64,000 bases of DNA from Paludibacteraceae bacterium (GTDB lineage: Bacteria; Bacteroidota; Bacteroidia; Bacteroidales; Paludibacteraceae), in the NCBI GenBank assembly GCA_017559505.1, contig JAFYSF010000025.1, forward strand, positions 20,637-84,636, read 5' to 3'. Position numbers and translations under genes: made by a program. Numbering within the stretch: the first letter of the stretch is position 1; the number at the start of each line of letters is the position of its first letter. Positions 751 to 62,299 of this stretch are shown in pieces. The notes below the pieces were generated by a model that saw only the letters and a program-made list of their open reading frames with translations, searched no databases and was not told where the DNA came from.

Positions 751-785
751 AATTATTAATTATTAATTGTTAATTCTTAATTCTA
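751..785. repeat. tandem heptamer array AATTNTT x5
   Basis: aattatt aattatt aattgtt aattctt aattcta, read directly; lies upstream of the pta start. Confidence 0.85.
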
Positions 786-795
786 TAACATCTTG

Positions 796-803
796 CAAAG
801 TTA
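796..803 (-). promoter_or_regulatory. candidate Bacteroidota -7 box (TAACTTTG on minus strand) for pta
   Basis: Plus-strand CAAAGTTA matches revcomp of TAnnTTTG, ~100 nt upstream of the pta ATG. Confidence 0.4.
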
Positions 804-829
804 CTAATACTTTTCGATATAACAAAAAA

Positions 830-880
830 AATCACAAAAAAAAGAAGCACCGAATTTTATCTCGGTGCCTCTTTTTTTTA
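830..880 (-). terminator. intrinsic terminator downstream of the 891-3044 gene
   Basis: 10-bp stem gaagcaccga/tcggtgcctc (1 mismatch), flanked by an A-run and a T-run. Confidence 0.7.
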
Positions 881-890
881 TCTACTAAAA

Positions 891-3044
891 TTAGTAACAA
901 ATTTGCTCTGCTAAACTGCGAAGTTCATAATTTGACTCTGTGCGATACAAAGATACTGCACGCATCACATTTTGTGTTTGAGTTTCCAACAAAGGAAGTT
1001 TAACTGCGTCATGAACCATGCGATTAGTTGTATTTGTTATCTTACCATGCACAACAGCAACAATTTCCATATTTTCAAACACACAATCAAAAGTACCTTT
1101 AGAACCACCAATCTTAGCAGGAACTTTATATGTATATGATTTAGAATAGCTACCTCCATCAAGTGTCATAAGTTCTCCAATTTGAGAAGTTAAGAACTTA
1201 CGTGGTGCATTGTTATGAGTATATGTTCCTGTTACCCCACTTTGACTTGCACTCAAACCACTTTGTGTCACTATTACAGTAACATAAACTTCATCTACTA
1301 TAGAATTTCCTTTAACTTCCACTGTCAATGTAGAATCTTCTACATTAAATGTACGATTAAGTTCGATAGTAGAAAGAGCTGGAGTCAAAAGGTTTTTTTC
1401 AAGGATTGCTGATGTAGCATAACCCGGGTGCCAAATAAGCACTGATTGACCTGCGCCATAATCACAAGCCATACGATTAATATTACACATAGGCGCAGCA
1501 TTAACACCAAGATAATCTGCAATATACAAACTTTCATTCAATGTAAATGCATCTGTACCATATGTATGGTGCGCAACCCACACTGCTTTACTTGGATCTT
1601 TCATGCCTGCAATTGCTGCAGCCATCGTTTTTGTTCCATTTGGACAGTTAGGACAACCTTGACCTGTAAACTGCTCTATATATACACTTTGACGTTCAAA
1701 CGCATCCGCAGAAAATACTGTAAAAATAAGATCTTCATCATTATTTGTAGACACAACGTCATCTGCATATTCAGCAACTATTTCAACCGCTACTTCTTTA
1801 AATGCACCCTCAATAGCTGGAGCAGAAAAACCATCAATGTTAACCATATAAGATTGTCCATTCAATAATCTATCTGAAACTGTAACTGTTTTTTCTTCAC
1901 CTCCAAGAGTACATTTAACCACTACATTTTCTGCTGGAGTAATACCTGCATTACGCAACTCACACGATACAACAACAGGATCGCCTACTTTAAGAGTTTG
2001 CGAAATAGCACCTCTTTCAAGAAGCACATCGTGTTGACGTTCTTTAGAATAATCTCCACCAACCATAATCGCTTGAATTGACCACACATATTTACCCAAT
2101 TGATTAGATACAAGGTCCCATCCGCTTTCTACATAAATCATCTCTGTTTTAGATGTTTTGCTTGATTTTTCGCAAGCCATAAAGTCCGTTGTACCTGTTG
2201 CAATATAACCAATATATGTATCTTGTTTGAAATCATACAATTCATCAAACATGATATATTGCCAACCTCCTTTTATATATGTAAATGTTTTTTCAATTTC
2301 TGGTTTTTGATAATCTGTACCAATAAACACTTTACCAGTTTTTACTTCATTTCCAACATAAACACGAATACCTGCAACATAGCAACCCGCATTAATCAAA
2401 TTTTCTACGCTCAACAATGTAGCTCCCCCGAATGTATGTGTTTTACCATCACCATAGCCAAAAACCAACGCATCATCCATACCTGATGATTTACAGTTAC
2501 CTAAAAGTTTCACCATCTCTTTGTCACCATCTTCAAGTTGTTTGCTTTGTTTATAAACAAATTTCACTGTAAATGTAACATCCAACGAATCTCGTCCATT
2601 TGTTACCATATACTCTGTTTCACAAACCGTTCTTACATTGTCATTCAATGCTTTCAAACGGAATGAAACATCACGAGTTTCTTTTGGAGCCACTTCTCCT
2701 AATTCCCAAATTTGTTCCGATGCTGAATTAGACTCAGCCAATAATACATCACCAACTACAACAGATGAAGTAAACTTATTAACATTAAATTTACGAGTTT
2801 CATAAATATCAAAGTTATTTTTCACTTCACCATTAATGATTTCTATTTCAGCCGACATTTCTTTTGATGCATCGTCATAATCATCCATTGTAACTACAAT
2901 AACATCATTAGATTTAACTGTTTTACCATTATACTTGATAGTATAAGACATATCACCGCCTTGTGTAATATGATCATCACAAGCAGCAAATGCTACAACT
3001 AACAACAAAGCAAATAATGCTTTAAACAAATTTTTTAAGTTCAT
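891..3044 (-). CDS. Omp28-related outer-membrane lipoprotein with long N-terminal extension
   Basis: 717-aa ORF with lipoprotein signal MNLKNLFKALFALLLVVAFAAC. The C-terminal half carries a thioredoxin-like FTGQGCPNCPNG motif, as in Omp28-family proteins. The N-terminal ~440 aa are unassigned. Confidence 0.5.
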   Translation of the reverse strand: MNLKNLFKALFALLLVVAFAACDDHITQGGDMSYTIKYNGKTVKSNDVIVVTMDDYDDASKEMSAEIEIINGEVKNNFDIYETRKFNVNKFTSSVVVGDVLLAESNSASEQIWELGEVAPKETRDVSFRLKALNDNVRTVCETEYMVTNGRDSLDVTFTVKFVYKQSKQLEDGDKEMVKLLGNCKSSGMDDALVFGYGDGKTHTFGGATLLSVENLINAGCYVAGIRVYVGNEVKTGKVFIGTDYQKPEIEKTFTYIKGGWQYIMFDELYDFKQDTYIGYIATGTTDFMACEKSSKTSKTEMIYVESGWDLVSNQLGKYVWSIQAIMVGGDYSKERQHDVLLERGAISQTLKVGDPVVVSCELRNAGITPAENVVVKCTLGGEEKTVTVSDRLLNGQSYMVNIDGFSAPAIEGAFKEVAVEIVAEYADDVVSTNNDEDLIFTVFSADAFERQSVYIEQFTGQGCPNCPNGTKTMAAAIAGMKDPSKAVWVAHHTYGTDAFTLNESLYIADYLGVNAAPMCNINRMACDYGAGQSVLIWHPGYATSAILEKNLLTPALSTIELNRTFNVEDSTLTVEVKGNSIVDEVYVTVIVTQSGLSASQSGVTGTYTHNNAPRKFLTSQIGELMTLDGGSYSKSYTYKVPAKIGGSKGTFDCVFENMEIVAVVHGKITNTTNRMVHDAVKLPLLETQTQNVMRAVSLYRTESNYELRSLAEQICY

Positions 3045-3099
3045 AAAACTAATTTTTTTAAGTTATTAGATAAAAGATTGAAAATTAATAATCAGACTG

Positions 3100-3107
3100 C
3101 AAAGGTA
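3100..3107 (-). promoter_or_regulatory. candidate -7 box (TACCTTTG on minus strand)
   Basis: Plus-strand CAAAGGTA, 56 nt upstream of the start at 3044. Confidence 0.45.
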
Positions 3108-3160
3108 ATATATTTTTTTTAATCTTACTACAAAAATAAAAAAAAAATGAATCAAACGGC

Positions 3161-4336
3161 CTATTTTAGCATTATACTTGCCCTATACACTGTATTTTCC
3201 GTCACAGGGCACAATGAAAAATATCCTTTTTTAAATCTTCCACCCTCTATTTCAATCGGATTTTCCTCTGTTTGCATATAATGATCACGCAACAATTCCC
3301 CTGGAGGACAATGATCTATCATAAACATCCCTTTAGCTCCTTTACACACACAACGATCATAAACCACTCTCGCCACCATACCCATAGTCATCCTTAAATT
3401 AAATTCTACCACTGGATTTATCTTATAATTTACATCATCTTGTGTATCCGAATAAACAAACATATCCACTCCCACAAATCCAGCATAATTTTTTGCCACT
3501 TTCTCACGCAAAAAGTCAGTTAATGTTTCACGTATCCAATTCAAATAATCAACAGACACCCACTTCGACAACTCTGCCTCGATATCTTCATTCGACAACA
3601 AATAATTTCCGCGATAAATTCCACTACCCTCAGTAAAAAACAACGAGTACCCTGCAAATGTAACATCTCCACGACCCACCTTAAACTCCATTGCAAAATC
3701 TTGTACCCTATTATAAGCCACCTCTCCCATTACAGAACCCTGCTTATCTATAACACGCTTACACCACCCCGAAAGACTCGGAGTCAACTGTCCTGAAGAC
3801 CAAAAAACACCCTTACCACTACCGCTCCAAGGAGCCTTAAAAACCACCTCTTCATATTTCGCAGCAAAAGCATTAACATCGGCCATCGCAACTAACTCTT
3901 CTGCCGATTTAGGCAACAAATTAGGATTAACTACTCTCTCTCTCAAATAATCCATCGCTTCAATAGTCAACCTACGGTGAGCCAATTGCTTATATTCATC
4001 TATCCTTTCTAATGTAGGCAACAATTTTTCTGCAACTCCATTATTCAAAAAAAACTTACGCACAGCCATATCCCACCCCCAAGGCTCAACCTTAAACTCT
4101 TCTATTTTATCTTTTGAAAACAATGGAATAGTCGCAACATCTAAACCCAACACATTCAAATCGTCCGTAAATTCCTGATCGCTCAACACCTCTGAAGCAA
4201 CCTCTTCCGCAAACCAACATGGTAGCAACGACAAATCCTCAGCAAAAGCAACTGCCGATTCTGGTGCTTGAAAATGAGCATTCCCATTTGCCAAAGCCAA
4301 ATCATGATCTGGATTAAAATAATATAACCTAGACAT
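3161..4336 (-). CDS. conserved hypothetical, ATP-grasp-like
   Basis: 391-aa ORF. VVFKAPWSGSGKGVFW and VGVDMF...INPVVEFNLRMTMG resemble ATP-grasp motifs. The exact family was not recognised. Confidence 0.4.
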   Translation of the reverse strand: MSRLYYFNPDHDLALANGNAHFQAPESAVAFAEDLSLLPCWFAEEVASEVLSDQEFTDDLNVLGLDVATIPLFSKDKIEEFKVEPWGWDMAVRKFFLNNGVAEKLLPTLERIDEYKQLAHRRLTIEAMDYLRERVVNPNLLPKSAEELVAMADVNAFAAKYEEVVFKAPWSGSGKGVFWSSGQLTPSLSGWCKRVIDKQGSVMGEVAYNRVQDFAMEFKVGRGDVTFAGYSLFFTEGSGIYRGNYLLSNEDIEAELSKWVSVDYLNWIRETLTDFLREKVAKNYAGFVGVDMFVYSDTQDDVNYKINPVVEFNLRMTMGMVARVVYDRCVCKGAKGMFMIDHCPPGELLRDHYMQTEENPIEIEGGRFKKGYFSLCPVTENTVYRASIMLK

Positions 4337-4423
4337 TTTTTAAAATTAAAATTTGAAAATCACAATTCGGTAAAGTAAACTCAATCTAAACAATACCGAG
4401 CACAAACAAAACAAAAAACTTGA

Positions 4424-4458
4424 AACTTTCACATTTCAACTTTAAACTTTCAACTTTA
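4424..4458. repeat. tandem heptamer array AACTTTM x5
   Basis: aactttc acatttc aacttta aactttc aacttta. Overlaps the sufE stop and encodes its last residues (LLKLKV). Confidence 0.85.
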
Positions 4459-4870
4459 AAAGTGCATATGCCTTCATCTTTTCAACCATCGACACAAGTC
4501 CATTACTACGTGTTGGCGACAAATGTTCTTTCAAACCTATTTTATCGAGGAATCCAAAATTATATTTTACAACCTCTTCTGCCGTACAACCCGACATCAT
4601 ATTTATCAAGAGCGCAACAATACCCTTTACTATTATCGCATCACTTTCTCCTCTAAAATACAATCTACCATCTTGCTCATCACACACCAACCACACCTGA
4701 CTCTGACAGCCTTTTATCAGTGTATCATCATTCTTTTCTTCTGCCGACAAACCTTCTAATTCTCCTCCCAAATCCACAAGATATTGGTAACGATCCATCC
4801 AATCCTCATAAACCTCAAATTCCTCAAGTAATTCAATCTCTTTTTCTTCTAATGTTTTCATATATTTCAA
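4442..4870 (-). CDS. sufE: SufE-family cysteine desulfuration protein
   Basis: 142 aa with the KGCQSQVW active-Cys loop and the SPTRSNGL motif. Confidence 0.85.
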   Translation of the reverse strand: MKYMKTLEEKEIELLEEFEVYEDWMDRYQYLVDLGGELEGLSAEEKNDDTLIKGCQSQVWLVCDEQDGRLYFRGESDAIIVKGIVALLINMMSGCTAEEVVKYNFGFLDKIGLKEHLSPTRSNGLVSMVEKMKAYALLKLKV

Positions 4871-4899
4871 ATACTATTTTTTATTTCTGATTACAACAA

Positions 4900-6084
4900 T
4901 TATTTTTTAATTCTATCAAATTCATCCCAAAAATTCGGATACGACTTATTTACCACCTCTGGGTTCTCTATTTCAATCTCTCTCATTAACCCTACAATCG
5001 ACATCGACATTGCTATACGATGGTCATTATACGCATTTATATATGGCACTTTTTCGCCTTCACCTCTCTCTCCCAACCAACAAATTTTACCCTTTTCATC
5101 ATATTTCAACGCATATCCACACTTACGCATTTCCGTCATCATCGCCCCTATTCTATCACTCTCCTTCACTCTCAACGTTTTCACACCACTTATCTCAAAT
5201 TCTACTCCCAACAAACATGCCACCACTACTATATACATCACAGCGTCTGGCATATTTTCACAATTCAGCTCTAATTTATTCACCTTGCATCCACTCCACT
5301 CTATTGCAACACCACCTTCTATCTCTTTAGTTTCAACCCCTAATCGTGCAAACACCTCCACCACCGCTCTATCAGGCTGAACGCTATCTAAACTCAATCC
5401 CAAAAATCTAAACTCCCCTCTTTTCAATACCGCCATCATAGCATACCACACCGTTGCCGACGACCAATCTTTCTCTCCACTATATCCTACACCTCTTCTA
5501 TATCTTTCTATCACACTATTTGTCAATCTAATATACGATTTCGAGGCCACATCTCCCTCATATTCTATCTCAATTCCACCCTCCACTCTGTCTGCAATCA
5601 ACATCAATGCCGATGCAAACTGACTACTCAACGACGCATCTAATCTCACTCGTCCGCCCCTCAATGCCTTACCTTTTATTTTCAATGGAGCAAATCCCTC
5701 TTTATCTACATAAGAAATATCTGCCCCCATTGCAAGCAAAACATCAACCAATGGCTTTATTGGTCGCTCACACAATCTTTTCGACCCAGTCAACACAAAT
5801 TCCCCCTCACTCACAGCACAATAAGCTGTCATAAACCGCAAAGCTGTCCCCGAATGATGCAAATCTAAATTCGTAATTGTGCATTGTGCATTGTGCATTG
5901 TGCACTGTTTCAACGCCCTCGACAACACAAATATATCATCATTCTCATCTTCAACCCCCACTTCTATTCCATTCAAAGCATCTAACACCAACTCCCTTGC
6001 CCTCACACTTTTCGACAAAGGCAAACCAATTGAGAACTTACCTTCTCCTGCATTATGAATTGTGAATTGTGAACCGTAGGTCAT
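4900..6084 (-). CDS. aroA: 3-phosphoshikimate 1-carboxyvinyltransferase (EPSP synthase)
   Basis: 394 aa with the motifs LPLSKSV, HSGTALRFMTAY, GSKRLCERPI and KESDR. Confidence 0.9.
   Translation of the reverse strand: MTYGSQFTIHNAGEGKFSIGLPLSKSVRARELVLDALNGIEVGVEDENDDIFVLSRALKQCTMHNAQCTITNLDLHHSGTALRFMTAYCAVSEGEFVLTGSKRLCERPIKPLVDVLLAMGADISYVDKEGFAPLKIKGKALRGGRVRLDASLSSQFASALMLIADRVEGGIEIEYEGDVASKSYIRLTNSVIERYRRGVGYSGEKDWSSATVWYAMMAVLKRGEFRFLGLSLDSVQPDRAVVEVFARLGVETKEIEGGVAIEWSGCKVNKLELNCENMPDAVMYIVVVACLLGVEFEISGVKTLRVKESDRIGAMMTEMRKCGYALKYDEKGKICWLGERGEGEKVPYINAYNDHRIAMSMSIVGLMREIEIENPEVVNKSYPNFWDEFDRIKK
5873..5907. repeat. tandem heptamer array TGCATTG x5 inside aroA
   Basis: gtaattg tgcattg tgcattg tgcattg tgcactg. 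On the coding strand it encodes QCTMHNAQCTITN. Confidence 0.9.
6051..6078. repeat. tandem heptamer array AATTGTG-type x4 at aroA 5' end
   Basis: cattatg aattgtg aattgtg aaccgta. Encodes the aroA N-terminus MTYGSQFTIHNA. Confidence 0.8.
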
Positions 6085-6097
6085 GAGCCTTTAAGCG

Positions 6098-6118
6098 AAT
6101 ATTGTGCATTATGAATTA
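6098..6118. repeat. heptamer array x3 (aatattg tgcatta tgaatta)
   Basis: Lies between the aroA start and the stop of the 6116-7441 gene. Confidence 0.6.
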
Positions 6119-7441
6119 TCTCCTAAATCCTGGCAATGACGCATAATTCAAACCACGCCACACATCATTATTCGAACGAACCGCCGAACTCTTTCCGCCT
6201 ATCAAATAAATATATCCGTTAGGAACAACCACTGCTGAATGACCATATCGTGGCACATACAAATCACCTATTTCTGATTTCGATTTAGGCGCGCCCCAAG
6301 TCAATCCAAAATCTTTAGAAAACACTTGAGCATCTTTCACCACCACACTTTCAGATTCCGAATCTGCAACCTGCGACATACCACCAAACAACATCAATCC
6401 ACCTCCATATTGAGCCAAAGCAGCATATGCTCGTGGCGAAAAACGTTCGATTCCACCGCTCAATTCGCTCCAATATCCTCCTGTTTCACTACTCCACACT
6501 GTCGACAAAAATCTACCATTGGCATCTATACCACCAACAACAAAAACCCTCTCTTTTCCCGAAGGTGCCTTTGCCACCAAAACAGCGGCTCCTTCTACAG
6601 GAAAGTCCGAAGGCAATCTACCCAAATCTACCCAATCTGTACCATCCAAACGTGCCAAACCATGATCTGCTGTAACGCCATACACCTTGCCCTCCATCGA
6701 AAACAATAGATATTCCACCGCTATACCTGTAATAACTTCAGATGTCCATGTTGCCCCATCCGCACTTTTATACAACTCTCCATCATAATACAGACAAACA
6801 AAGTCTTCATATCCAACCAAATAATTCAAATCTATATCCGAAAAATCAATATCCAAACCCGAAACTTCTAATGCCTCCCATTTCTCGCCATCAACACTCT
6901 CATTCACAAGCAAATCATTATCTACTATAGCAAAATAAAGCAATCTATCATTGATCCACAACACCTTTTCTGTCATGGCATAACCTCCAAACACCTCGCT
7001 CTTTATTCCTTGCCAGATGAACGTGTCAGGGTCAACAGTATGAACATTAACCTTCACAAAATAATCCGCCGAAGTCTTCTCATCCGACGCAACTACCGTG
7101 AATTTCACACCATTCGTAAAATCCAAATACACCTCTGTCAAATTATAATAATCAAGCGTATCATTGATATAAACCGACGAAAATCTCGGATTTATAACAA
7201 ACGACAACGAATCAATTCGAGTGCCATAATCAATCGAATCATAATTATAAATCAACATACTATCATCGTCGATAGTAAACACATAATCATCAATCCCCTC
7301 AATACTATCACTATAAAGATAAAACGAAGTGATTTTTGCCTCATCCGAAATCGTCGTAGATGTCGTTCCTCCACTATCCAAGCACGACGTTGCACACAAC
7401 ATCAAAAACATCATTCCTAAAATATAAATACTCTTTCTCAT
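6116..7441 (-). CDS. lipoprotein with Kelch/beta-propeller-like repeats (DUF6242-like)
   Basis: 441 aa with lipobox LMLCATSC. The C-terminal half has Kelch-like motifs (PRYGHSAVV, IYLIGG, VFVVGG). Confidence 0.5.
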   Translation of the reverse strand: MRKSIYILGMMFLMLCATSCLDSGGTTSTTISDEAKITSFYLYSDSIEGIDDYVFTIDDDSMLIYNYDSIDYGTRIDSLSFVINPRFSSVYINDTLDYYNLTEVYLDFTNGVKFTVVASDEKTSADYFVKVNVHTVDPDTFIWQGIKSEVFGGYAMTEKVLWINDRLLYFAIVDNDLLVNESVDGEKWEALEVSGLDIDFSDIDLNYLVGYEDFVCLYYDGELYKSADGATWTSEVITGIAVEYLLFSMEGKVYGVTADHGLARLDGTDWVDLGRLPSDFPVEGAAVLVAKAPSGKERVFVVGGIDANGRFLSTVWSSETGGYWSELSGGIERFSPRAYAALAQYGGGLMLFGGMSQVADSESESVVVKDAQVFSKDFGLTWGAPKSKSEIGDLYVPRYGHSAVVVPNGYIYLIGGKSSAVRSNNDVWRGLNYASLPGFRR

Positions 7442-7474
7442 AAATTCTTTCTATTATATTATTATACCAAACTG

Positions 7475-7482
7475 CAAAGTTA
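7475..7482 (-). promoter_or_regulatory. candidate -7 box (TAACTTTG on minus strand)
   Basis: Plus-strand CAAAGTTA, 34 nt upstream of the start at 7441. Confidence 0.45.
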
Positions 7483-8331
7483 ATTATTATTTTCCGATTT
7501 CACGCTATTTTCACCATATTTTTGAGTGCAAATCATCAAAACCACACCTAAAAGAAACAATGGCACGCTCAACCACTGCCCCATATTCAACACCATATCA
7601 TGCTCAAAACCAACCTGAATCTCCTTCACAAACTCCACACAAAATCTAAACCCAGCTATCACCATCAATTGCAACGACAAATAAAATCCCGGCTTAACAC
7701 TCTCATATTTCAATCGCTTAAACAACCAAACTCCCACTCCAAACAGCATAAAAAAGAACAACGACTCATACAACTGAGCTGGATGACGAGGCAAATCATC
7801 TATTTCAGGGAAAACAAATGCCCACACCACATCCGTCGATGCACCAACAATCTCCGAATTCATCAAATTACCCAATCTTATAAAAGCCCCAGCCAATGCC
7901 GTCGCTATAGCCATCCAATCCATTATCGGCAATATCGCCAACTTCGACCTCCATCTAAACAACATCAATGCCAACATCAACCCCATCACAGCACCATGAC
8001 TTGCCAAACCATGGTATCCACTAAAGTAATAATTCCCCATTTCATCGACACCCACAGGCAAAAACATCTCTATCGGATGCGACAAAAAATAATCTGCTTC
8101 ATAGAATAAACAATGCCCCAATCTCGCACCCAAAAATATTCCAAAAAACGACCAAATTATCAAATTCTCAAACACCCCCTGCTCAATTCCAAACTCCTTA
8201 AATCTACCCCACACATACCATCCCGCCAATACCAAACCCAAAGCAAACAACACCCCGTACCACAACAAAGTGAAGCTCCCAACCGAAAAAATCACCGGAT
8301 TGGGCGACCATACAATCCAAAATAAATTCAT
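7480..8331 (-). CDS. lgt: prolipoprotein diacylglyceryl transferase
   Basis: 283 aa, polytopic, with GARLGHCLFYE and PRHPAQLYES motifs. Confidence 0.9.
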   Translation of the reverse strand: MNLFWIVWSPNPVIFSVGSFTLLWYGVLFALGLVLAGWYVWGRFKEFGIEQGVFENLIIWSFFGIFLGARLGHCLFYEADYFLSHPIEMFLPVGVDEMGNYYFSGYHGLASHGAVMGLMLALMLFRWRSKLAILPIMDWMAIATALAGAFIRLGNLMNSEIVGASTDVVWAFVFPEIDDLPRHPAQLYESLFFFMLFGVGVWLFKRLKYESVKPGFYLSLQLMVIAGFRFCVEFVKEIQVGFEHDMVLNMGQWLSVPLFLLGVVLMICTQKYGENSVKSENNN

Positions 8332-8416
8332 AATATTTTCTTATGGGACTTCTATAAATTACCTTGTAAATAAAATTAAAAAACGGGCAATTTATAGAAG
8401 TTCCCTTGTTACAAAC

Positions 8417-8517: not shown

Positions 8518-8530
8518 ACTCGCATTAAAA

Positions 8531-8558
8531 ATTCCTCACTCCTCATTCCTCATTCCAA
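8531..8558. repeat. tandem heptamer array ATTCCTC x4
   Basis: attcctc actcctc attcctc attccaa. Overlaps the dusB stop codon and last codons. Confidence 0.85.
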
Positions 8559-9571: not shown

Positions 9572-9584
9572 CAAAAAAAATTCG

Positions 9585-12582: not shown

Positions 12583-12594
12583 AATTCTTTAAAA

Positions 12595-12736
12595 AGTTTA
12601 GAGTTTAGAGTTTAGAGTTTAGAGTGAAAATTGTCTATAACTCATAAGTCTTAACTCGAATAGTTAATAGTTAATTGGTTTTATGTAAAGTAAATATATA
12701 GTGAATCTCTATACACTATACTTTACACACTATACA
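12595..12736. repeat. nqrE-nqrF spacer built of heptamer blocks
   Basis: AGTTTAG x4 (12595-12625), TAACTCA-type x3 (12638-12658), AATAGTT x3 (12659-12679), CTATACA-type x4 (12709-12736). Confidence 0.85.
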
Positions 12737-12740
12737 TTAA

Positions 12741-13385: not shown

Positions 13386-13400
13386 ATTTCAAATATTTTT

Positions 13401-13470
13401 GTCAACGGTCAACGGTCAACAGCTGATAGTCATTAGACTGTTGTCTGTAGACTGTAGACTTTCGACATTT
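13401..13470. repeat. nqrD-nqrE spacer: ten in-phase heptamers
   Basis: gtcaacg gtcaacg gtcaaca gctgata gtcatta gactgtt gtctgta gactgta gactttc gacattt. Paralogous to 16116-16185. Confidence 0.9.
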
Positions 13471-13472
13471 TA

Positions 13473-14838: not shown

Positions 14839-14847
14839 AATTAATTC

Positions 14848-14924
14848 AGTTGAAAGTTGAAAGTTGAAAGCTGAAAGTTAGGTCATATAGAATATCTAAC
14901 CTTTAACCTCTAACCTTTAACCAT
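14848..14924. repeat. nqrB-nqrC spacer: eleven in-phase heptamers
   Basis: agttgaa x3, agctgaa, agttagg, tcatata, gaatatc, taacctt, taacctc, taacctt, taaccat. Confidence 0.9.
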
Positions 14925-14927
14925 TAT

Positions 14928-16097: not shown

Positions 16098-16115
16098 ATT
16101 TCTTTTATTGATTAT

Positions 16116-16185
16116 GTCAACAGTCAACGGTCAACGGTCGATAGTCAAATAGACTGTAAACTTTAGACTGTAGACTTTAGACATT
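16116..16185. repeat. nqrA-nqrB spacer: ten in-phase heptamers
   Basis: gtcaaca gtcaacg gtcaacg gtcgata gtcaaat agactgt aaacttt agactgt agacttt agacatt. Confidence 0.9.
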
Positions 16186-25979: not shown

Positions 25980-27084
25980 TTTATTATACGATATTGCTCT
26001 CACACAATTATTTATGGTTGGACCTCGTACTGCTAGAACATTGACAGAACATCTTGGATCGGCAGAAGCAGTGTTCAAAGAATCGGCAGAGGTATTGCGA
26101 ACCATTGGTGGAGTTGGAGCATATATTTCGGATGATGGATATAGACAAGAGGCATTGCGTAGAGCAACAGAAGAAATAGAATTTATTACAAAGAATAAAA
26201 TTAAAGCTATTCCTTGGGGTTCAGATGACTACCCTACTAAACTTGCTCAATGTGGAGATGCACCACAGATATTATATCAATATGGCAATTGCGATTTGAA
26301 TACTCAAAAATTTGTTGCCATAGTAGGCACTCGTAATGCCACAAAATATGGGCGAGACTTGACAAATGAATTGGTAAGAACTCTTGCAACATCAAACCCA
26401 GACACTGTTATTATCAGCGGATTGGCTTATGGCATAGACATAGCAGCACATAAAGCAGCCCTTGAATATGGACTGCCGACAATAGGAGTTGTTGCTCATG
26501 GACTTGACCGAATTTATCCCCATGTACACCGACAATATGCATCGCAAATGATACAATCGGGAGGAGCTATAATAACAGAATATCTCTCAAAAACCAACCC
26601 CGACCCTCAAAATTTTGTACAACGCAATCGTATAGTGGCAGGAATGAGTGATGTAGTGGTTATTGTTGAATCTGCAATTAAGGGTGGATCACTTATAACT
26701 GCTAATATAGCAAATGATTACAATCGAGATGTGATGGCATTCCCAGGACGCATAGGAGATAAAACATCGGAAGGTTGCAACAAATTGATACGCCAACACA
26801 AAGCTGAAATTATTACTTCAGCAGAAGATTTAATAAATCTAATGGGATGGAATGCCCCTCAAAAAAATGCAGTGCAACAAACACTGTTTAACAACTTAAC
26901 ACCCGAACAACAATCGGTAGTAGATTTGCTAAAAACAGGACCTCAACACATTAATGTAATAAGTACAAACCTTGATTTATCAATACAAAAAACATCGGCT
27001 TTACTTACTGAAATGGTTTTTGATGAACTAATAGACCAACTACCCGGAGATGTTTATACTTTAAAACTGAGAATTGAAAATTGA
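25969..27084 (+). CDS. dprA: DNA-processing protein DprA
   Basis: Start at MNNNLLYDIALTQL (ATG 25969). Rossmann-like core VAIVGTRNATKYG...GLAYGIDIAAH. Confidence 0.9.
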   Translation: MNNNLLYDIALTQLFMVGPRTARTLTEHLGSAEAVFKESAEVLRTIGGVGAYISDDGYRQEALRRATEEIEFITKNKIKAIPWGSDDYPTKLAQCGDAPQILYQYGNCDLNTQKFVAIVGTRNATKYGRDLTNELVRTLATSNPDTVIISGLAYGIDIAAHKAALEYGLPTIGVVAHGLDRIYPHVHRQYASQMIQSGGAIITEYLSKTNPDPQNFVQRNRIVAGMSDVVVIVESAIKGGSLITANIANDYNRDVMAFPGRIGDKTSEGCNKLIRQHKAEIITSAEDLINLMGWNAPQKNAVQQTLFNNLTPEQQSVVDLLKTGPQHINVISTNLDLSIQKTSALLTEMVFDELIDQLPGDVYTLKLRIEN

Positions 27085-27087
27085 AAA
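27067..27087. repeat. heptamer array TTGARAA x3 at dprA 3' end
   Basis: ctgagaa ttgaaaa ttgaaaa. Encodes the dprA C-terminus LRIEN and its stop. Confidence 0.6.
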
Positions 27088-28980: not shown

Positions 28981-29008
28981 CACTAATAACTAATCATTAA
29001 TAACTAAC
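28981..29008. repeat. tandem heptamer array AACTAAT-type x4
   Basis: cactaat aactaat cattaat aactaac, immediately upstream of the ATG at 29013. Confidence 0.8.
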
Positions 29009-34205: not shown

Positions 34206-34739
34206 ATGACACTTACAGAACAACAATTCGACAAATCAGCGGCAGAATGCCGTTCGATATACGAAAAAAAATTGAAAGACTACGGGGCTGCATGGCGAAT
34301 CATGCGCCCTGCAAGTCTTACAGACCAAATATTTATTAAGGCTAATCGTATTCGCTCGTTGGAAATCAAAGGCACGTCGATGGTGAATGAGGGAATTCGT
34401 CCTGAATTGATTGGGATTATCAATTACTGCATTATCGCATTGATACAGTTGGAGTTGGGTTATGCAGAGACTGATGACCTCCCTGTTGAGCGTGCGCTTG
34501 AGATGTATGATAGATATATGCTTGAGGCTAAGAATTTGATGATTGCTAAAAATCATGATTATGATGAGGCTTGGCGTCAGATGCGTACACAATCATATAC
34601 TGACCTTATTCTCATGAAGATACATCGCACCAAACAAATCGAAGACAATAATGGAAAAACCCTTATTTCAGAAGGTGTGGATGCTAACTATTTCGACATG
34701 CTCAATTATGCTGTATTCTATATGATTCAGCAAGTTTAA
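34206..34739 (+). CDS. DUF1599 domain protein
   Basis: 177 aa, a duplicated helical module (KDYGAAWR...; HDYDEAWRQMR). The usual Bacteroidota neighbour of the next gene and tpiA. Confidence 0.65.
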   Translation: MTLTEQQFDKSAAECRSIYEKKLKDYGAAWRIMRPASLTDQIFIKANRIRSLEIKGTSMVNEGIRPELIGIINYCIIALIQLELGYAETDDLPVERALEMYDRYMLEAKNLMIAKNHDYDEAWRQMRTQSYTDLILMKIHRTKQIEDNNGKTLISEGVDANYFDMLNYAVFYMIQQV

Positions 34740-34741
34740 TC

Positions 34742-34769
34742 CATAATTCATAATTACAATGCATAATTG
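34742..34769. repeat. heptamer array CATAATT/ATAATTG x4
   Basis: cataatt cataatt acaatgc ataattg. Overlaps the start codon at 34759 (MHNC...). Confidence 0.75.
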
Positions 34770-35862
34770 CCTCGCATTTCGCATTTTATACTTGATATCG
34801 CGACTTGTGGTCGGTTTGACATTTCTTTTTTCGGGATTCGTTAAAGCAATTGACCCACTTGGCACGACTTATAAGATTCAAGACTATCTTGAAGTGATGG
34901 GCTTGGCTTGGTTCAACGAATTGGCTTTGGTTGCTTCGTTCGCCCTTATTACAGCTGAATTTTTGGCTGGAGCATTGCTTATTACAAACATCAATTCCAA
35001 ATTAGGACTTTGGCTTTCAACGCTATTGATGGTGGCAATGACGCCACTCACATTGTGGATTGCAATTGAAAATCCTGTTACCGATTGTGGTTGCTTTGGC
35101 GATGCAATAATCCTTTCGAATTGGGCTACATTTTGGAAGAATATTATACTTGACCTGTTGATTCTTGCAATATGGTTATTGCAACGTCGAGTGTATCGTC
35201 CTTGGCTAACCCCATTCCCTTCTTGGACAATGACCATTACCTTTTCACTCATCACGATAGGTATAGGCATACATTCGCTTAACAATCTGCCATTTATAGA
35301 TTTCAGACCTTATAAAATAGGCAACGATATTCTTGAAGGCATGGAATTGCCAGAAGGTGCGCAACGCGACCAATATCGCACAACGTTTGTTTATAGTCGA
35401 GATGGTGTAAAACAAGAATTCGAATTGCAAAATGCACCATACAACGACTCCACTTGGACTTTCGTTGAACAACGCACTGAATTGATAGCCAAAGGCGAAG
35501 AGCCTCCAATCCACGATTTCTCTATAGTTACGCCAGAAGGCGATGATTTGACTTACGATATTCTTTATAGCGAAGGGCGCACCTACTTGTGTGTAATGTA
35601 CGATTTGCATAAGTCAAAGGTGAAACATCTCGATAATATACGTAAAGTCTATGAACAATCACAGGCCGAAGATGCTGAATTTTTGGTACTTACCTCATCG
35701 TCTGATATGATTGATTCGTTCAAACAAGAGCATAACTTGCCTTATCAATTTGCTCTCACCGACCCAATACAATTGAAAACTATGGTGCGCGCCAATCCGG
35801 GAATCGTAATTCTTGAAGGGGCTAAGGTTATCGATAAATTCAATGCTAATAAAGAAAAATAA
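34759..35862 (+). CDS. DoxX-like membrane protein with C-terminal thioredoxin-like domain (BT_3928-type)
   Basis: 367 aa. The N-terminal half has ~5 TM helices and a DCGCFGD motif. The soluble C-terminal half is unassigned in detail. Confidence 0.55.
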   Translation: MHNCLAFRILYLISRLVVGLTFLFSGFVKAIDPLGTTYKIQDYLEVMGLAWFNELALVASFALITAEFLAGALLITNINSKLGLWLSTLLMVAMTPLTLWIAIENPVTDCGCFGDAIILSNWATFWKNIILDLLILAIWLLQRRVYRPWLTPFPSWTMTITFSLITIGIGIHSLNNLPFIDFRPYKIGNDILEGMELPEGAQRDQYRTTFVYSRDGVKQEFELQNAPYNDSTWTFVEQRTELIAKGEEPPIHDFSIVTPEGDDLTYDILYSEGRTYLCVMYDLHKSKVKHLDNIRKVYEQSQAEDAEFLVLTSSSDMIDSFKQEHNLPYQFALTDPIQLKTMVRANPGIVILEGAKVIDKFNANKEK

Positions 35863-40971: not shown

Positions 40972-42003
40972 ATGAGAGTGTTGATAACTTGTTTTTCGTC
41001 TATTAGCAATGTTGCTGCAATTGTTCCACAGCTTTATGGACTTGTGAATGACTATCCTCAGCACGAATTTGTTGTGCTAAGCCGTAGTTTTTTGAAGCCA
41101 TTGTTCGACAAATTGCCACGTGTGACTTTTGTCGGTGCTGACATTCGTGGCGAGCATAAAACAATCGTTGGGGTATATCAGTTATTCAAACAATTAAAGG
41201 CTATGAGGCCAGATGTTGTATTAGACATGCAACGCTCGTGGCGCACGAAGTTGATAACTCGCCTTTTTACATTGTTAGGTACTAAAACTTTACAAATTGG
41301 ATTTGCTCGAAGCGAACAAAAACATTTGATTAAACAAGGAGCAAACAAGTATCACCCAATTCCTACAATATTCGACCGCCAAGCACGTTTATATGCTAAA
41401 ATAGGGCTGAAAGTAAACGATGATTTCCATAAACTCTATGACCCAAACATGGAGCAAGTGGCAAAAATCAAAGAATTGTATGGGGAGAAACTTGGACATT
41501 GGATTGGCATTGCTCCATTCTCGATTGCAAGAGGTAAAACATTGCCACTCCGCAAGATGAAGAATGTTATTGCTCATTTTGACAAGCAACCAAATACAAA
41601 AATTTTCTTGTTCGGCGCAGGAGAAATGGAGAACGAGTTGCTCTCTGATTGGCAATCGCTCTACAACAATGTTTATGCGGTGCATACAAATTTGAAACTT
41701 GACGATGAATTGATATTGATGAATTTTTTGGATGTTATGTTGTGTATGGACTCGGCTAATATGCACTTAGCGTCGTTGATGGCTGTACCTGTGGTGAGTG
41801 TTTGGGGCGCAACGCATCCTTATTCGGGATTTCTTGGATGGAAACAGTCTGTGGATAATTGCGTAGGAGTAGATTTTTCGTGCCGACCTTGTACGGCTCA
41901 TTCCGACAAGAAATGTAAATATGGCGACTATCGTTGCCTCGAAAGTCTCCATTCAAGCAAAATAATAGAAATAATTAATCAATGCATAATGCACAATGCA
42001 TAA
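40972..42003 (+). CDS. glycosyltransferase family 9 (heptosyltransferase-like)
   Basis: 343 aa with a two-Rossmann GT-B layout. Its size and motifs resemble LPS heptosyltransferase-type proteins. The C-terminus (QCIMHNA) is encoded by a heptamer array. Confidence 0.6.
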   Translation: MRVLITCFSSISNVAAIVPQLYGLVNDYPQHEFVVLSRSFLKPLFDKLPRVTFVGADIRGEHKTIVGVYQLFKQLKAMRPDVVLDMQRSWRTKLITRLFTLLGTKTLQIGFARSEQKHLIKQGANKYHPIPTIFDRQARLYAKIGLKVNDDFHKLYDPNMEQVAKIKELYGEKLGHWIGIAPFSIARGKTLPLRKMKNVIAHFDKQPNTKIFLFGAGEMENELLSDWQSLYNNVYAVHTNLKLDDELILMNFLDVMLCMDSANMHLASLMAVPVVSVWGATHPYSGFLGWKQSVDNCVGVDFSCRPCTAHSDKKCKYGDYRCLESLHSSKIIEIINQCIMHNA

Positions 42004-42015
42004 TGCACAATTGCC
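41981..42015. repeat. tandem heptamer array AATGCAY x5
   Basis: aatgcat aatgcac aatgcat aatgcac aattgcc. Confidence 0.9.
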
Positions 42016-42054
42016 ATTCGGTATTTGTTTAATTAATAATAAAAAGATAATTAA

Positions 42055-42089
42055 GATTATGCATTGTGCATTTAGCATTGTGCATTGAA
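42055..42089. repeat. tandem heptamer array CATTGTG-type x5, inverted relative to 41981-42015
   Basis: gattatg cattgtg catttag cattgtg cattgaa. Confidence 0.9.
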
Positions 42090-42098
42090 ATAAGAATT

Positions 42099-54378: not shown

Positions 54379-54398
54379 AATACAAAGGTACAAAAAAA

Positions 54399-54433
54399 AG
54401 TTGAAATGTAAAATTTGAAAATTGAAAGTTTTT
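54399..54433. repeat. heptamer array ARTTGAA-type x5
   Basis: agttgaa atgtaaa atttgaa aattgaa agttttt. Confidence 0.65.
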
Positions 54434-57631: not shown

Positions 57632-57667
57632 AAAAAAGGTTGACTTTTTTAAGTCAACCTTTTTTTA
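57632..57667. terminator. bidirectional terminator between convergent genes
   Basis: 9-bp stem ggttgactt/aagtcaacc with a 4-nt loop, flanked by an A-run and a T-run. Confidence 0.75.
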
Positions 57668-58660
57668 TTTCCAATGTGGATTATTTTTTTTGTAAAATAA
57701 TATTGATATTATTATTGTTAATATGTATAGAGGATAGAATAATGACATTAAAGGGAAGAATATTGGATAGTATTTTAATATTTTATGTTGTTTATATTTA
57801 AATAGATAAGGCAACATTATTATATTTTCAATAATGAAAATTATTAAAAATATAGGAAGTATAAAATGAGGAATGAGAAATATGAATATTAGTAATAAAA
57901 TATTGATGATTGCAACTGAAAAAGCAACTAATATTGTTGTAAAATCTTTATAATTTATTGATTTAGATGCCCAACGAGTGCGTTGGATGATGAATTTTTT
58001 AAATGAATTTGTGCCTTTAGTTTTAATTATATAGTTGCTATCATATAGATAATTTATTTTTGCCTTGCTTTTTTTGAGTGCATGTAACATAAACATATCA
58101 TCACCTGAAGCAATATTTTTGTTTATTTTGTCTATATACTGGATATATATATTGCGCTTTATAATTAAATTAGCACCATTACACATAATAGGATTATTGA
58201 GTAGGGCTGTGTAAGCAGTAATTGCTTGAAGAGAAGAAAATTCTATTTTTTCTATTATATTAAAAATACCTTTTTCATCAATAATATCTACAGCGCCAAG
58301 TAGCATATCACTATTATTTTTATTGAGATATTGTAGTGCTAATTCACAATGATTATTATTTAAGCAACAATCGGCATCGGTAAATATTAGATATTTAGAT
58401 GTTGCTATTTTAGCTGCTTCTATTAGTGCTGATTTTTTACCTTTACCACTATTTTTAATTACCTTTATTTTATTATATTTTTTTGAATAATTTATTAAAA
58501 AATTGTAGGTTTCATCGGTAGAATTGTCATCAACAAATATAACTTCATCTGGCTTGAATGTTTGGTTTTTTATAGATTCAAGCAAGTTAGTAAGATTGCT
58601 TATTTCATTGCGACAAGCAATTATAATTGAAAGTTGAGAATTGAGAGTTGAAAATTGCAT
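57665..58660 (-). CDS. glycosyltransferase family 2 with C-terminal TM helices
   Basis: 331 aa with IIIACRNE...VIFVDDNSTDET and TDADC. The N-terminal MQFSTLNSQLS is encoded by a heptamer array. Confidence 0.75.
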   Translation of the reverse strand: MQFSTLNSQLSIIIACRNEISNLTNLLESIKNQTFKPDEVIFVDDNSTDETYNFLINYSKKYNKIKVIKNSGKGKKSALIEAAKIATSKYLIFTDADCCLNNNHCELALQYLNKNNSDMLLGAVDIIDEKGIFNIIEKIEFSSLQAITAYTALLNNPIMCNGANLIIKRNIYIQYIDKINKNIASGDDMFMLHALKKSKAKINYLYDSNYIIKTKGTNSFKKFIIQRTRWASKSINYKDFTTILVAFSVAIINILLLIFIFLIPHFILPIFLIIFIIENIIMLPYLFKYKQHKILKYYPIFFPLMSLFYPLYILTIIISILFYKKNNPHWK

Positions 58661-60857: not shown

Positions 60858-60874
60858 TTGTATAAAAATGGTAT

Positions 60875-60908
60875 AAAAAAAAGAGGCTTATGAGCCTCTT
60901 TTTTTTAT
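60875..60908. terminator. bidirectional terminator between convergent genes
   Basis: Stem gaggct/agcctc with a 4-nt loop, flanked by A8 and T8 runs. Confidence 0.7.
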
Positions 60909-62035
60909 TTGTTATATCCGAAGATGTCTACTTCGATGATGTAGTTGGCTACGCCTTCGCCGTGAAGGTCGTTGACTTTAGAGTTGAAACGGTCGAGGTC
61001 GAAGTCGATAGTGAGGTTGCCGTCTTTAGGGAGATTGTGGATTTCGAGCCAATCTACTTTGAGAGGTAGGCCTGGTCCCCAGTTGGCACGGTCGTATTTG
61101 TAGGTGCCGGCTTGTTTGTAGGTGCTATCGTTTTCGTAGAAGATGTAGCCTTCATAGGTTTGTTTGCCATTGAGGATTACGCGGTAGAAGTTTTCGTCGA
61201 ATTCTGCTGCGTTGTTTGCGCGTTTGCCTTTGCCTGTTGTGCCACGGTCAGGGAATACGCCACGGTCGGCACCGTGTCCGCTGATGCTGACTTTCATGAG
61301 AAGTGATTTAACTTCTTGAGGTAGTTGTACGTTACGAATGCCTAAGCGTTCGATGTCTTCGATGTCGTTGCTACCGAGTGAGTCGGGAGATACGCCATAC
61401 GCCCATGAGCGATAGCCAATGTTGCTTGATGCGCGTGAGTCGTAGATTTTTTTGTAGAATATTGTTTCTTTGTCTTTTTTGCCTTCGTAGAAGTCGAATG
61501 TGAGTGTGACGGTGTGTGCTTTTTTGTCAGTTGCATCCCAGCCACCGTAGTAGATGTGGAATTCTACTTCGCCATTGAGCATTGGGAGGTATTCGGTGAT
61601 GTCCATGTAGTAGAGTTTTTCCCAATTGATGTCGAAATAGCCACCGTAAGGGGTGAATGCGCGTACGAGTTCGTAGAATTCGCCTGTGTGTGGGTTTTTG
61701 AGCATAATCATTGTGGTCATATCCCAATCAGCAGGTCCTTCGTTCCAACCTCCCATGCGATATGTGAGGATAGCGCGGTTGTATTGGTCGGTGGTTTCAG
61801 GGAATTTGACAGTGATTACAGAGTCTTCGTCGAGTCCCCAGCCGTAGAAATGGAGGCGTACGGCATCGGTTTTGACAGAGAAATCAGCTTCGGTGCCAGC
61901 CATGGGGTGTTCGTTGTACCATGCTGGGCGAGTGCTTTCGCGTGTGTAACATTTGTCGTTAGGAATTTCGGGATTGCATCCTACGAAAATAGCAGTTAGA
62001 ATTGCTAATGTGAATAGTTGTCTGAGTGTTTTCAT
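60905..62035 (-). CDS. lipoprotein, possibly peptide-N-glycosidase F-related
   Basis: 376 aa with lipobox IFVGC. ISGHGAD...NNAAEF...ILNGKQ resembles the PNGase F C-terminal domain pattern. This rests on recollection only and is not verified. Confidence 0.35.
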   Translation of the reverse strand: MKTLRQLFTLAILTAIFVGCNPEIPNDKCYTRESTRPAWYNEHPMAGTEADFSVKTDAVRLHFYGWGLDEDSVITVKFPETTDQYNRAILTYRMGGWNEGPADWDMTTMIMLKNPHTGEFYELVRAFTPYGGYFDINWEKLYYMDITEYLPMLNGEVEFHIYYGGWDATDKKAHTVTLTFDFYEGKKDKETIFYKKIYDSRASSNIGYRSWAYGVSPDSLGSNDIEDIERLGIRNVQLPQEVKSLLMKVSISGHGADRGVFPDRGTTGKGKRANNAAEFDENFYRVILNGKQTYEGYIFYENDSTYKQAGTYKYDRANWGPGLPLKVDWLEIHNLPKDGNLTIDFDLDRFNSKVNDLHGEGVANYIIEVDIFGYNK

Positions 62036-62087
62036 AGATTTTATTTGTTTAATTGTGTGTTAATTATTCGTTCAATTGTTTGGAATG

Positions 62088-62095
62088 CAAAGATA
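62088..62095 (-). promoter_or_regulatory. candidate -7 box (TATCTTTG on minus strand)
   Basis: Plus-strand CAAAGATA, 53 nt upstream of the start at 62035. Confidence 0.45.
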
Positions 62096-62149
62096 ATAAA
62101 AATTTGTAATATAGGGGCGAGTGTGTGTGTTTATTTTTTGCAGATAAGG

Positions 62150-62215
62150 TTATAGTATATTTATAGTATGTTTATAGTATATTTATCCTATATTTATGGT
62201 ATATTTATAGTATAT
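62150..62215. repeat. 6 x 11-bp tandem array (TTATAGTATAT family), module copy B
   Basis: ttatagtatat ttatagtatgt ttatagtatat ttatcctatat ttatggtatat ttatagtatat. Confidence 0.9.
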
Positions 62216-62299
62216 TGAAGGTAAGGAGAGGTTAGGGAGCAGGGAGTAGGAAATAAGGAGTAGGGAGCAGGGAGTTGAAGTGAGAGTTGAGGGATTTGT
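62216..62299. repeat. purine/G-rich tail made of 12 in-phase heptamers
   Basis: tgaaggt aaggaga ggttagg gagcagg gagtagg aaataag gagtagg gagcagg gagttga agtgaga gttgagg gatttgt. Confidence 0.8.

Follow-up and report, generated by a model that had tools for sequence, protein, structure and literature searches.

In a 64,000-nt stretch of DNA from a Paludibacteraceae bacterium (GenBank contig JAFYSF010000025.1; hereafter the window), short tandem arrays of 7-nt units lie beside gene starts and stops, which raises the question of what these heptamer arrays are, how they come about and why they are found where they are. Here, we have examined the arrays in the window and in related strains. Many of them form the two arms of predicted hairpins in the spacers between cistrons, whole elements are swapped at a given site between strains whose proteins are identical, and array length peaks at about 32 nt. 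On balance, we consider that they are probably fast-evolving non-coding heptanucleotide repeats of a repeat-prone host lineage, of the type described as short tandemly repeated repetitive sequences (STRRs) or long simple sequence repeats (LSSRs). NqrD encoded in the window is 100% identical to NqrD of two metagenome-assembled genomes (MAGs) of Candidatus Aphodosoma sp., a gut genus of Bacteroidales.

To begin with, the arrays are real. Tandem Repeats Finder (TRF) reported 23 period-7 arrays in the window, each with at least 2.9 copies. In a period-specific scan, 14 period-7 arrays scored 11 or more, compared with 0.0 in 20 dinucleotide shuffles; at this score no array was found for periods 3-6, 8 and 12, period 14 returned the period-7 arrays again and period 11 formed a separate set. 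Tandem units extending further than chance allows are the mark of simple sequence repeats (SSRs, or LSSRs; unit of 1-11 nt), and the arrays show it. The window and strains of its genus contain more than 20 unit classes, and a 7-nt unit, several families and a mainly non-coding location are STRR-type traits. The same arrays recur in other samples that were assembled independently, and a length of 32 nt is much shorter than the k-mers of assemblers, so that an assembly artefact can be ruled out. A preliminary description of this DNA had listed arrays at gene boundaries, and TRF placed period-7 arrays at or a few bases from 751, 4416-4461, 6052, 8531, 9601, 9640, 27063, 28982, 34737, 41980, 42056 and 58625, with eight more in the nqr spacers; the one at 54410 is weak and of period 7/8. 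Two of its positions needed correction: an array at 6098 is only partly right, with about three degenerate units, and at 62216 an 11-mer array ends, the nearby heptamer array occupying 62233-62275. The recurrence of motif families in both orientations was confirmed. It had missed an array inside aroA (5876-5908), the inverted hairpin pairing, the strain polymorphism and the in-frame coding arrays.

The arrays do hug gene starts and ends as described: for 20 of the 23 a start or stop codon is no more than 20 nt away, whereas 5000 random placements gave 2.3 on average and 9 at most. The statement that most junctions carry them was overstated, since arrays were found at 16 of 52 junctions (13 co-directional, 2 divergent and 1 convergent), corresponding to 16 of the 44 backbone junctions (36%), or 44% where the spacer is at least 15 nt long. 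None of the 8 junctions in two islands has an array, compared with 16 of 44 in the backbone (one-sided Fisher p=0.04); the proposed absence from the islands thus agrees with the counts, but is statistically weak and suggestive only.

Pfam scans of all 53 large open reading frames (ORFs) of the window showed that its backbone consists of housekeeping genes, including the nqrFEDCBA operon (11296-17538, minus strand), aroA, sufE, lgt, dus, RNase R, dprA, recQ, tpi, parAB, uvrC, mnmG and recG; neither a transposase gene nor a REP-associated tyrosine transposase (RAYT; REP, repetitive extragenic palindromic sequence) was detected in these ORFs. The coding fraction of the window is 89%. No match to any curated covariance model was obtained from Rfam at the gathering score over the whole window, and ARAGORN reported no tRNA or tmRNA in it.

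Many arrays are paired and represent the two arms of an imperfect predicted hairpin, typically with six paired bases and one mismatch per heptad. In the nqrB-nqrC spacer, (AAGGUUA)4 lies against (CUUUCAA)4 as 6-bp helices with single mismatches between them, and the nqrD-E, nqrA-B, nqrE-F and GT9/parA spacers are predicted to fold in like manner. We folded 18 spacer alleles, taken from the window and from related strains, and for all 18 predicted folding was better than that of shuffles (z -2.5 to -8.9). The predicted hairpin starts 0-10 nt past the stop codon in 17 of them and 20 nt past it in the remaining one, and 7-18 nt (median 14) stay unpaired ahead of the ATG. The distance from the end of an array or hairpin to the start codon is 6-19 nt, and an unpaired A/T-rich leader is always left. 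The elements of this kind in the window, labelled F1 to F5 by their arm units here and below, are the following.

12583..12740, minus strand: nqrE-nqrF spacer, 158 nt, with two predicted hairpins; minimum free energy -32.9 kcal/mol
12595-12625 and 12709-12736, minus strand: the nqrE-nqrF arrays reported by TRF, AGTTTAG in 4.4 copies and CTATACA in 4 copies
13386..13472, minus strand: nqrD-nqrE spacer, 87 nt, with an F1 hairpin that reads, in the sense direction, (AGTCTAC)n, loop, (GTTGACC)n
14839..14927, minus strand: nqrB-nqrC spacer, 89 nt, with an F3 hairpin, (AAGGTTA)4, loop, (CTTTCAA)4
16098..16185, minus strand: nqrA-nqrB spacer, 88 nt, with the second F1 element
41977..42090, plus strand: F4 element that begins at the stop codon of GT9 and ends 13 nt short of the parA ATG, (CAATGCA/TAATGCA)4.6, loop with GCCATTCGGT, then (ATTATGC/ATTGTGC)4.6; minimum free energy -44 kcal/mol, z -6.9

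The two F1 copies (nqrA-B and nqrD-E) are about 80% identical, loop and flank included.

With regard to transcription, 27 terminator-like sites were found in positions 1-20000 and none of them overlaps an array; thus, the arrays mark cistron boundaries and not transcript ends. Classical terminators with a GC-rich hairpin and a T tract are found at 834-881, 10813-10843 and 11153-11190, the last one after nqrF. The array hairpins are followed by A-rich leaders, whereas an intrinsic (Rho-independent) terminator has a T/U tract directly after a GC-rich hairpin; with 0 of 27 overlapping, identity with such terminators was rejected. Selection at transcript boundaries, which had been suggested before, is not supported in this wording: the densest arrays are intercistronic within nqrABCDEF, and none overlaps a terminator-like site.

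Evidence for rapid evolution comes from comparison with close relatives. We collected 10 contigs from other samples whose NqrD is identical to that of the window, together with a sister species (L003; 92% NqrD identity). In the sister species the nqrA-B, B-C, C-D, D-E and E-F spacers are 42, 11, 1, 6 and 38 nt long, whereas those of the window measure 88, 89, 1, 87 and 158 nt; its spacers have no paired hairpin, and a single array is found only in nqrE-F. The elements are insertions relative to this sister species. Among the 10 contigs, the nqr spacers are a mosaic of families, orientations and unit numbers. The nqrA-B spacer holds F1 (AGTCTAC/GTTGACC), F5 (AAGACAG/CATGTCT) or F4 (TTCATAA...ATTGTGC), the last being found there in strains L082 and L089 and also in the GT9/parA spacer of the window. 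The nqrB-C spacer holds F3 (AAGGTTA/CTTTCAA), or F1 with 2+2 or 4+4 units, which gives spacers of 55 or 83 nt, and the nqrD-E spacer holds F1 in either orientation or F2 (TAATAAG/CTTACTA). Altogether, F1 occurs in nqrA-B, B-C, D-E and E-F, and F2 in nqrC-D, D-E and E-F. Strain L085 has a clean 74-nt F2 element in nqrC-D, where all other strains read taaTatg. We saw no target-site duplication when filled and empty sites were compared at nqrC-D, nqrD-E and nqrB-C.

Changes within elements proceed by whole units. Otherwise near-identical strains differ by gain or loss in steps of 7 or 14 nt. At GT9/parA, where strains with identical ParA were compared (an exact-match Tpi query gave only the window's own strain), the two arms have 4.6/4.6, 4.6/2.6, 2.6/2.6 or 2.6/3.6 units, and a 14-nt change in the left arm shifts the GT9 stop codon, giving a protein of 343 or 348 aa. 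Polymorphism in whole-unit number among close relatives, a hallmark of SSRs, is therefore seen at GT9/parA, nqrB-C and RNase R. Unit sequence also changes in concert: CTAAACT in four copies in the window is CTATACT in three copies in other strains, with the partner arm altered to match.

The remaining arrays of the window are as follows.

751..784, no strand assigned: single array of AATTATT in 4.6 copies between convergent genes, about 50 nt from the bidirectional terminator at 834-881
4416..4461, minus strand: AAACTTT/AACTTTC in 6.4 copies across the sufE stop codon, in the spacer preceding the next gene
5876..5908, minus strand: ATTGTGC in 4.7 copies in frame in aroA; 33 nt, 11 codons, encoding ..QCTMHNAQCT..
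6049..6118, minus strand: two short ATTGTGA/ATTGTGC-type arrays (6049-6073 and about 6096-6118) that flank both the start codon of aroA and the stop codon of the gene upstream of it
8531..8556, minus strand: ATTCCTC in 3.7 copies overlapping the dus stop codon
9598..9668, no strand assigned: adjacent pair of AATTGAG in 4.6 copies and TCCTCAC in 3.9 copies in the spacer between divergent dus and an FeS-assembly gene (ATG at 9674); weak predicted hairpin on the minus strand
27063..27087, plus strand: GAGAATT/GAAAATT in 3.6 copies overlapping the dprA stop codon; the next start codon is 18 nt on
28982..29007, plus strand: single G-free array of ACTAATA in 3.7 copies, stopping 6 nt short of the start codon of a sigma-54 activator
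34737..34786, plus strand: TCCATAA/TTCATAA plus TCGCATT in 2 copies, covering the stop codon of DUF1599 and the start codon of the mauE-like gene; in strain L220 this site holds a GTATAGA-type array unrelated to it
54397..54432, minus strand: AAAGTTG/AAAATTG, a weak period-7/8 array that lies upstream of mnmG, 17 nt from its start codon
58625..58657, minus strand: AATTGAA/AGTTGAG in 4.7 copies within the first 11 GT2 codons, counting from the sole upstream ATG
62233..62287, plus strand: G-rich array of TAGGGAG/CAGGGAG in 6 copies, directly after an 11-mer array at 62150-62216

The mechanical starts of the dus ORF (8536-9639) and the GT2 ORF (57665-58660) fall inside or upstream of arrays. In gene calls of relatives, Dus has 331-332 aa and begins near 9534, compared with 367 aa for the mechanical ORF of the window; both N-termini are probably over-extended in the window's ORF list.

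A small number of arrays lie inside coding sequence. The aroA array occupies a poorly conserved, gapped surface segment in an alignment with structures from the Protein Data Bank (PDB) and is kept in a strain of 98% nucleotide identity. In the same alignment the array fills this gapped variable segment and does not add length, which excluded a net insertion. A further match between the flank of this array and the F4 loop (inverted repeat I4) corresponds to the conserved LDxxxSGT motif of aroA and was taken as chance. RNase R of relatives provides further examples, with in-frame arrays at 2318-2350 in L081, 2573-2605 in L083 and 2008-2040 in L082 (window equivalent, 21489-23651). AGTCAAC is present in 1.7 or 4.7 copies, an in-frame difference of 21 nt, whereas L082 has a 33-nt (CAATGCA)4.7 block with nothing similar in other strains. 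The array-bearing proteins have 727-731 aa, compared with 720 aa in the window. In two unrelated metagenome contigs (L101, 8090-8200; L143, 150-260), predicted signal peptides (MKKIFLIILCIVHCALCI...) have (ATTGTGC)4.6 as their hydrophobic core, so that heptamer arrays can enter coding N-termini.

The fairly uniform array length noted in the preliminary description proved to be correct and general. TRF gave 4.6-4.7 units in 10 of the 23 arrays of the window. Of 92 distinct arrays in the combined Aphodosoma and Bacteroidales loci, 38 measure 30-33 nt; the distribution is non-monotonic and peaks at 32. We also examined the nqr loci of 77 other Bacteroidales species. Arrays of period 7 or 8 were almost all non-coding and beside gene ends, and many were exactly 32 nt (for example, AATTGACAATTGACAATTGATAATTGACAATT), whereas arrays of period 6 and 9 in the same loci were mainly coding. 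Similar arrays of about 32 nt and period 7/8 occur in the corresponding nqr spacers of Prevotella, Alistipes and rumen Bacteroidales MAGs. Density was 0.22 per kb in the window compared with 0.023 per kb in the 77 species (about 9-fold), and one or more arrays were present in 12 of these species. When metagenomes were scanned for (ATTGTGC)3, at least 120 contigs were obtained, 80 of which were fetched and analysed; these have GC contents of 30-69% and no shared flanks. Their ATTGTGC-family arrays number 45 at 31-33 nt, 13 at 24-26 nt and 5 at 38-40 nt, and 25 of 131 other period-7 arrays in these contigs measure 31-32 nt, whereas period-5 and period-6 arrays decay monotonically. An inverted partner was found for about 15% of the arrays (78 of 92 unpaired), and where the ATTGTGC family is paired, GCACAAT is the 5' arm in 14 of 14 matches (about 8 independent pairs). 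Thus, the earlier suggestion of length-limited generation gained support, with a mode of 30-33 nt and no monotonic decay, also in unrelated contigs. It should be noted that sets of TAACTGA in a Beggiatoa (BOGUAY) genome number 68, 40, 19, 1 and 1 for 2-6 copies, which is a monotonic decay (PMC4679880); the mode of about 32 nt is therefore not universal.

If the arrays are repeats of the STRR/LSSR type, they would be born and resized by replication slippage in a 7-nt register, a mechanism to which the whole-unit steps point. Intra-strand template switching or ectopic gene conversion may copy the arms or maintain their complementarity, and alleles could pass between strains through homologous recombination in flanking genes. 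Purifying selection would purge insertions that harm coding sequence, promoters or the unstructured A/T-rich initiation region on which Bacteroidota depend. Arrays are seen from the stop codon to the last ~14 nt before the ATG, in the first or last few codons of a gene and, in frame, in variable protein segments. Such spacers, dispensable terminal codons and variable protein loops would be the places of tolerance, which may be why arrays are left right at the boundaries of cistrons. They probably have little effect: a predicted intercistronic stem-loop in a polycistronic mRNA may slow exonucleases, and the arrays appear dispensable because this operon has spacers of just 1-42 nt in the sister species. 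Recent islands might lack arrays because they have spent little time in a repeat-prone genome.

Several observations weigh against this interpretation. Plain slippage predicts a monotonic decay of length, and a mode of 31-33 nt was observed. Some arrays have no seed in the empty allele (the 33-nt RNase R block of L082 and the 74-nt nqrC-D element of L085) and look more like the insertion of a ready-made block than like local growth. The presence of AGTCTAC/GTTGACC in four nqr spacers, in both orientations, calls for a copying mechanism. The sense strand is more stable in only 7 of the 18 spacer alleles, so that comparison of sense and antisense stability (G-U versus A-C asymmetry) gave no G-U signature of RNA-level selection. 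The argument from the islands, with 8 junctions and p=0.04, is weak.

Two other accounts address mobility and copying. The paired arrays could be non-autonomous mobile palindromes, similar to REP sequences, their hairpin-forming pairs (REPINs) or MITEs (miniature inverted-repeat transposable elements), with a transposase elsewhere in the genome that recognises the hairpin; the heptamer periodicity would be part of the recognised structure and slippage would only alter copies after insertion. We regard this as possible, yet unlikely. The appearance of F1, F2 and F4 at different junctions in both orientations, the similarity of the two F1 copies down to loop and flank, the clean filled and empty sites, the RNase R block without a local seed and the fixed arm order of GCACAAT all fit a mobile element, and, like REP sequences and REPINs, the elements are palindromic and dispersed. 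On the other hand, copies of a family are often alike only in the repeated arm units, with unrelated loops, no transposase gene lies within the window, dozens of unrelated heptamer units in one genus are hard to fit to a single enzyme, and most arrays in unrelated contigs are unpaired. The absence of target-site duplication at the filled/empty pairs compared also speaks against it, and membership among MITEs was rejected since the arms, although inverted repeats, have no flanking duplication at filled sites. A different and somewhat more doubtful account starts from the length mode: an unrecognised step common to very different bacteria would fix array size at a quantum of about 32 nt, which equals 4 units plus 4 nt and comes near to three helical turns, followed by self-copying of hairpin modules. 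Such a step might be birth at full length by one stuttering or template-switch event, or the footprint of the polymerase and clamp, and in Bacteroidales, heptad-mismatch hairpin modules would be copied among cistron junctions without a classical transposase.

Functional accounts appear no more probable. In a phylum without Shine-Dalgarno pairing, the arrays might be selected cis-acting mRNA or DNA sites, bound by one protein per 7 nt (cold-shock-domain or S1-domain proteins, or ribosomal protein S1), that tune initiation, cistron decoupling or mRNA half-life. The precise placement, with an unpaired A/T-rich leader always left, the preferred size of about 32 nt (4.5 units) and its recurrence in nqr spacers of other Bacteroidales are in line with this idea; binding of one CspB protein per heptamer has been discussed, and S1, Csp and Csr have been proposed as readers of TAACTGA (PMC4679880). 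We nevertheless think it rather improbable, as the units are too diverse for a single sequence-specific reader, an essential respiratory operon is without arrays at the corresponding junctions in the sister species and in some strains, stability has no sense-strand bias, and arrays are also present within ORFs and between convergent genes. Far less credible still are contingency loci, in which changes in unit number would switch the expression of neighbouring genes (phase variation). Unit number does differ between strains, the 14-nt change at GT9/parA does move the GT9 stop codon, and the HMW adhesins of Haemophilus are a known case of heptanucleotide phase variation (PMC8262952, PMC12721329). 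However, the neighbours are housekeeping genes (nqr, aroA, dus, parA, dprA) rather than surface or restriction genes, the arrays lie past stop codons or upstream of a free leader and not between promoter elements, copies within ORFs preserve the frame (33 nt; 21-nt steps), and imperfect units lower slippage rates; at GT9/parA, only the C-terminal tail of GT9 changes. A phase-variable contingency locus was therefore rejected as a class for the arrays, and heptanucleotide repeats of the STRR/LSSR type remain our preferred reading.

Both islands are strain-variable. The C10 locus (17783-21518) is an insertion that carries a C10 (streptopain-family) protease gene at 18198-20738, whose product has a Spi inhibitor domain and a type IX secretion system (T9SS) sorting tail; L001 and L081-L087 have no C10 gene, and DUF3298 is followed by nqrA in about 360 nt. 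The second island (36655-40971) encodes DUF3791/DUF3990, an AAA_14/DUF4143 ATPase and a 379-aa hypothetical protein. L220 is without it, GT9 lying 174 nt after tpi, and L217 has different genes at this position. Hairpin cassettes in this island (36680-36720, 37710-37790 and 39190-39273) consist of repeated CTCCATTCG...CGAATGGAG stem-loops and a T tract, then a TAnnTTTG-like sequence, and look like terminator-promoter units, not heptamer elements.

Other repeats were also observed. The 11-mer array (TTATAGTATAT in 6 copies) is present twice, 30 kb apart (31945-32105 and 62117-62290), in long non-coding regions beside gene starts, and each copy is followed by a purine- and G-rich tract (GGGTGAGGGGAGGGGGG in one, TAGGGAGCAGGGAG in the other). 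A dispersed element of 60-80 nt (GTGTCAGTCTTCTTCGRTGAAGGTTGCTTGAAGGTTGCT...) has four hairpin-folding copies at 8437-8518 (minus strand), 23676-23736, 40460-40520 and 49839-49920; its 11-nt unit TGAAGGTTGCT is single in strain L214 and double otherwise. In the merR/alkaline phosphatase spacer (window ~46316-46380), L218 (5745-5946) and L221 (4017-4229) have an extra insertion of about 133 nt that contains 2 or 3 copies of AGATATACGAA 11-mers. Two inverted TTTTCCACA boxes, at 54481 and 54661, lie in a 26%-GC spacer upstream of mnmG. Around 17.5-21 kb the direction of the genes and the sign of the GC skew are reversed, with parAB and mnmG (gidA) nearby. A replication origin at the strand switch at 17.5-18.2 kb found no support, as there is no DnaA-box cluster and the count in the window (29, compared with 23 expected) is at chance level.

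These results have several consequences. Gene callers run ORFs into arrays (N-termini of dus and GT2; C-termini of GT9, dprA and sufE), and therefore start and stop calls in Bacteroidales MAGs will be off by a few codons. As spacers differ where proteins are identical, the arrays are highly discriminating strain markers for gut metagenomes. They also offer a natural experiment on how far Shine-Dalgarno-independent translation tolerates intercistronic structure, since about 14 nt ahead of the ATG stay free in every allele. Finally, the mode of about 32 nt, if true genome-wide, is a testable handle on why 7-nt units dominate long bacterial SSRs; Mrazek et al. (2007) are cited for the 7-nt-unit excess and the polymerase-footprint idea in passages of PMC4679880 and PMC4692102.

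Heptamer repeats of this kind are already known in other bacteria, and the arrays are not a new system; our literature search for heptamer tandem repeats in Bacteroidales found no paper. REP sequences, bacterial interspersed mosaic elements (BIMEs), REPINs and Rickettsia palindromic elements are short imperfect palindromes in operon spacers, dispersed in either orientation, strain-polymorphic and occasionally in frame in genes. They differ in having a conserved sequence, with RAYT for REP/REPIN, and arms that are not tandem heptamers, whereas the window elements have no family-wide conserved sequence, no RAYT in the window and clear unit-number slippage. REPINs are described in PMC3116915.

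In cyanobacteria, STRRs are able to form both arms of an extended helix in RNase P RNA. Cyanobacterial STRRs and the Nostoc GGGGAYT repeats resemble the window arrays in having tandem 7-nt units in a few to several copies, mainly intergenic. A heptanucleotide repeat lies between pecE and pecF within an operon, and one Calothrix genome has three heptanucleotide families (PMC4692102). Besides the other phylum and other unit sequences, the window lineage differs by dozens of units per genus, and heptad-mismatch hairpins from stop codon to leader are the usual form in its nqr operon, whereas Nostoc has few inverted pairs (PMC4692102). None of the cyanobacterial units CCCCAGT, TTGGTCA and CAACAGT is among the array consensus units of the window and the genus strains, so that the resemblance is one of kind and not of sequence homology.

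The GGGAATC repeats of Xanthomonas are 89-93% intergenic, very near ORF ends and mostly between co-oriented genes (Rehm et al., 2015; PMC4692102), and the contrast drawn with Nostoc implies that pairs forming inverted repeats are commoner in Xanthomonas (PMC4692102). Position at ORF ends, inverted pairs and extensive variation in length and sequence among close relatives are shared with our arrays (PMC4692102). However, one G-rich quadruplex-capable motif dominates the Xanthomonas genome, whereas the window arrays are AT-rich, diverse and not G4-forming (perhaps except 62233-62287), and whole elements are swapped per site between strains. The TAACTGA direct repeats of Beggiatoaceae, Cyanobacteria and some Bacteroidetes, including Paludibacter (MacGregor, 2015; PMC4679880), likewise lie a few nucleotides upstream of start codons of genes of all functional classes, essential genes such as those for ribosomal proteins among them, with shorter repeat-free spacers in relatives and an orientation constrained by stop codons (PMC4679880). 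They form a single unit, predicted to be unstructured, with monotonic copy decay, whereas the window lineage has many units, hairpins and a mode of 4.6 copies. Thus, what our analysis adds to these known systems is the many unit families, the hairpin modules that reach from stop codon to leader and the allele mosaic at the level of strains.

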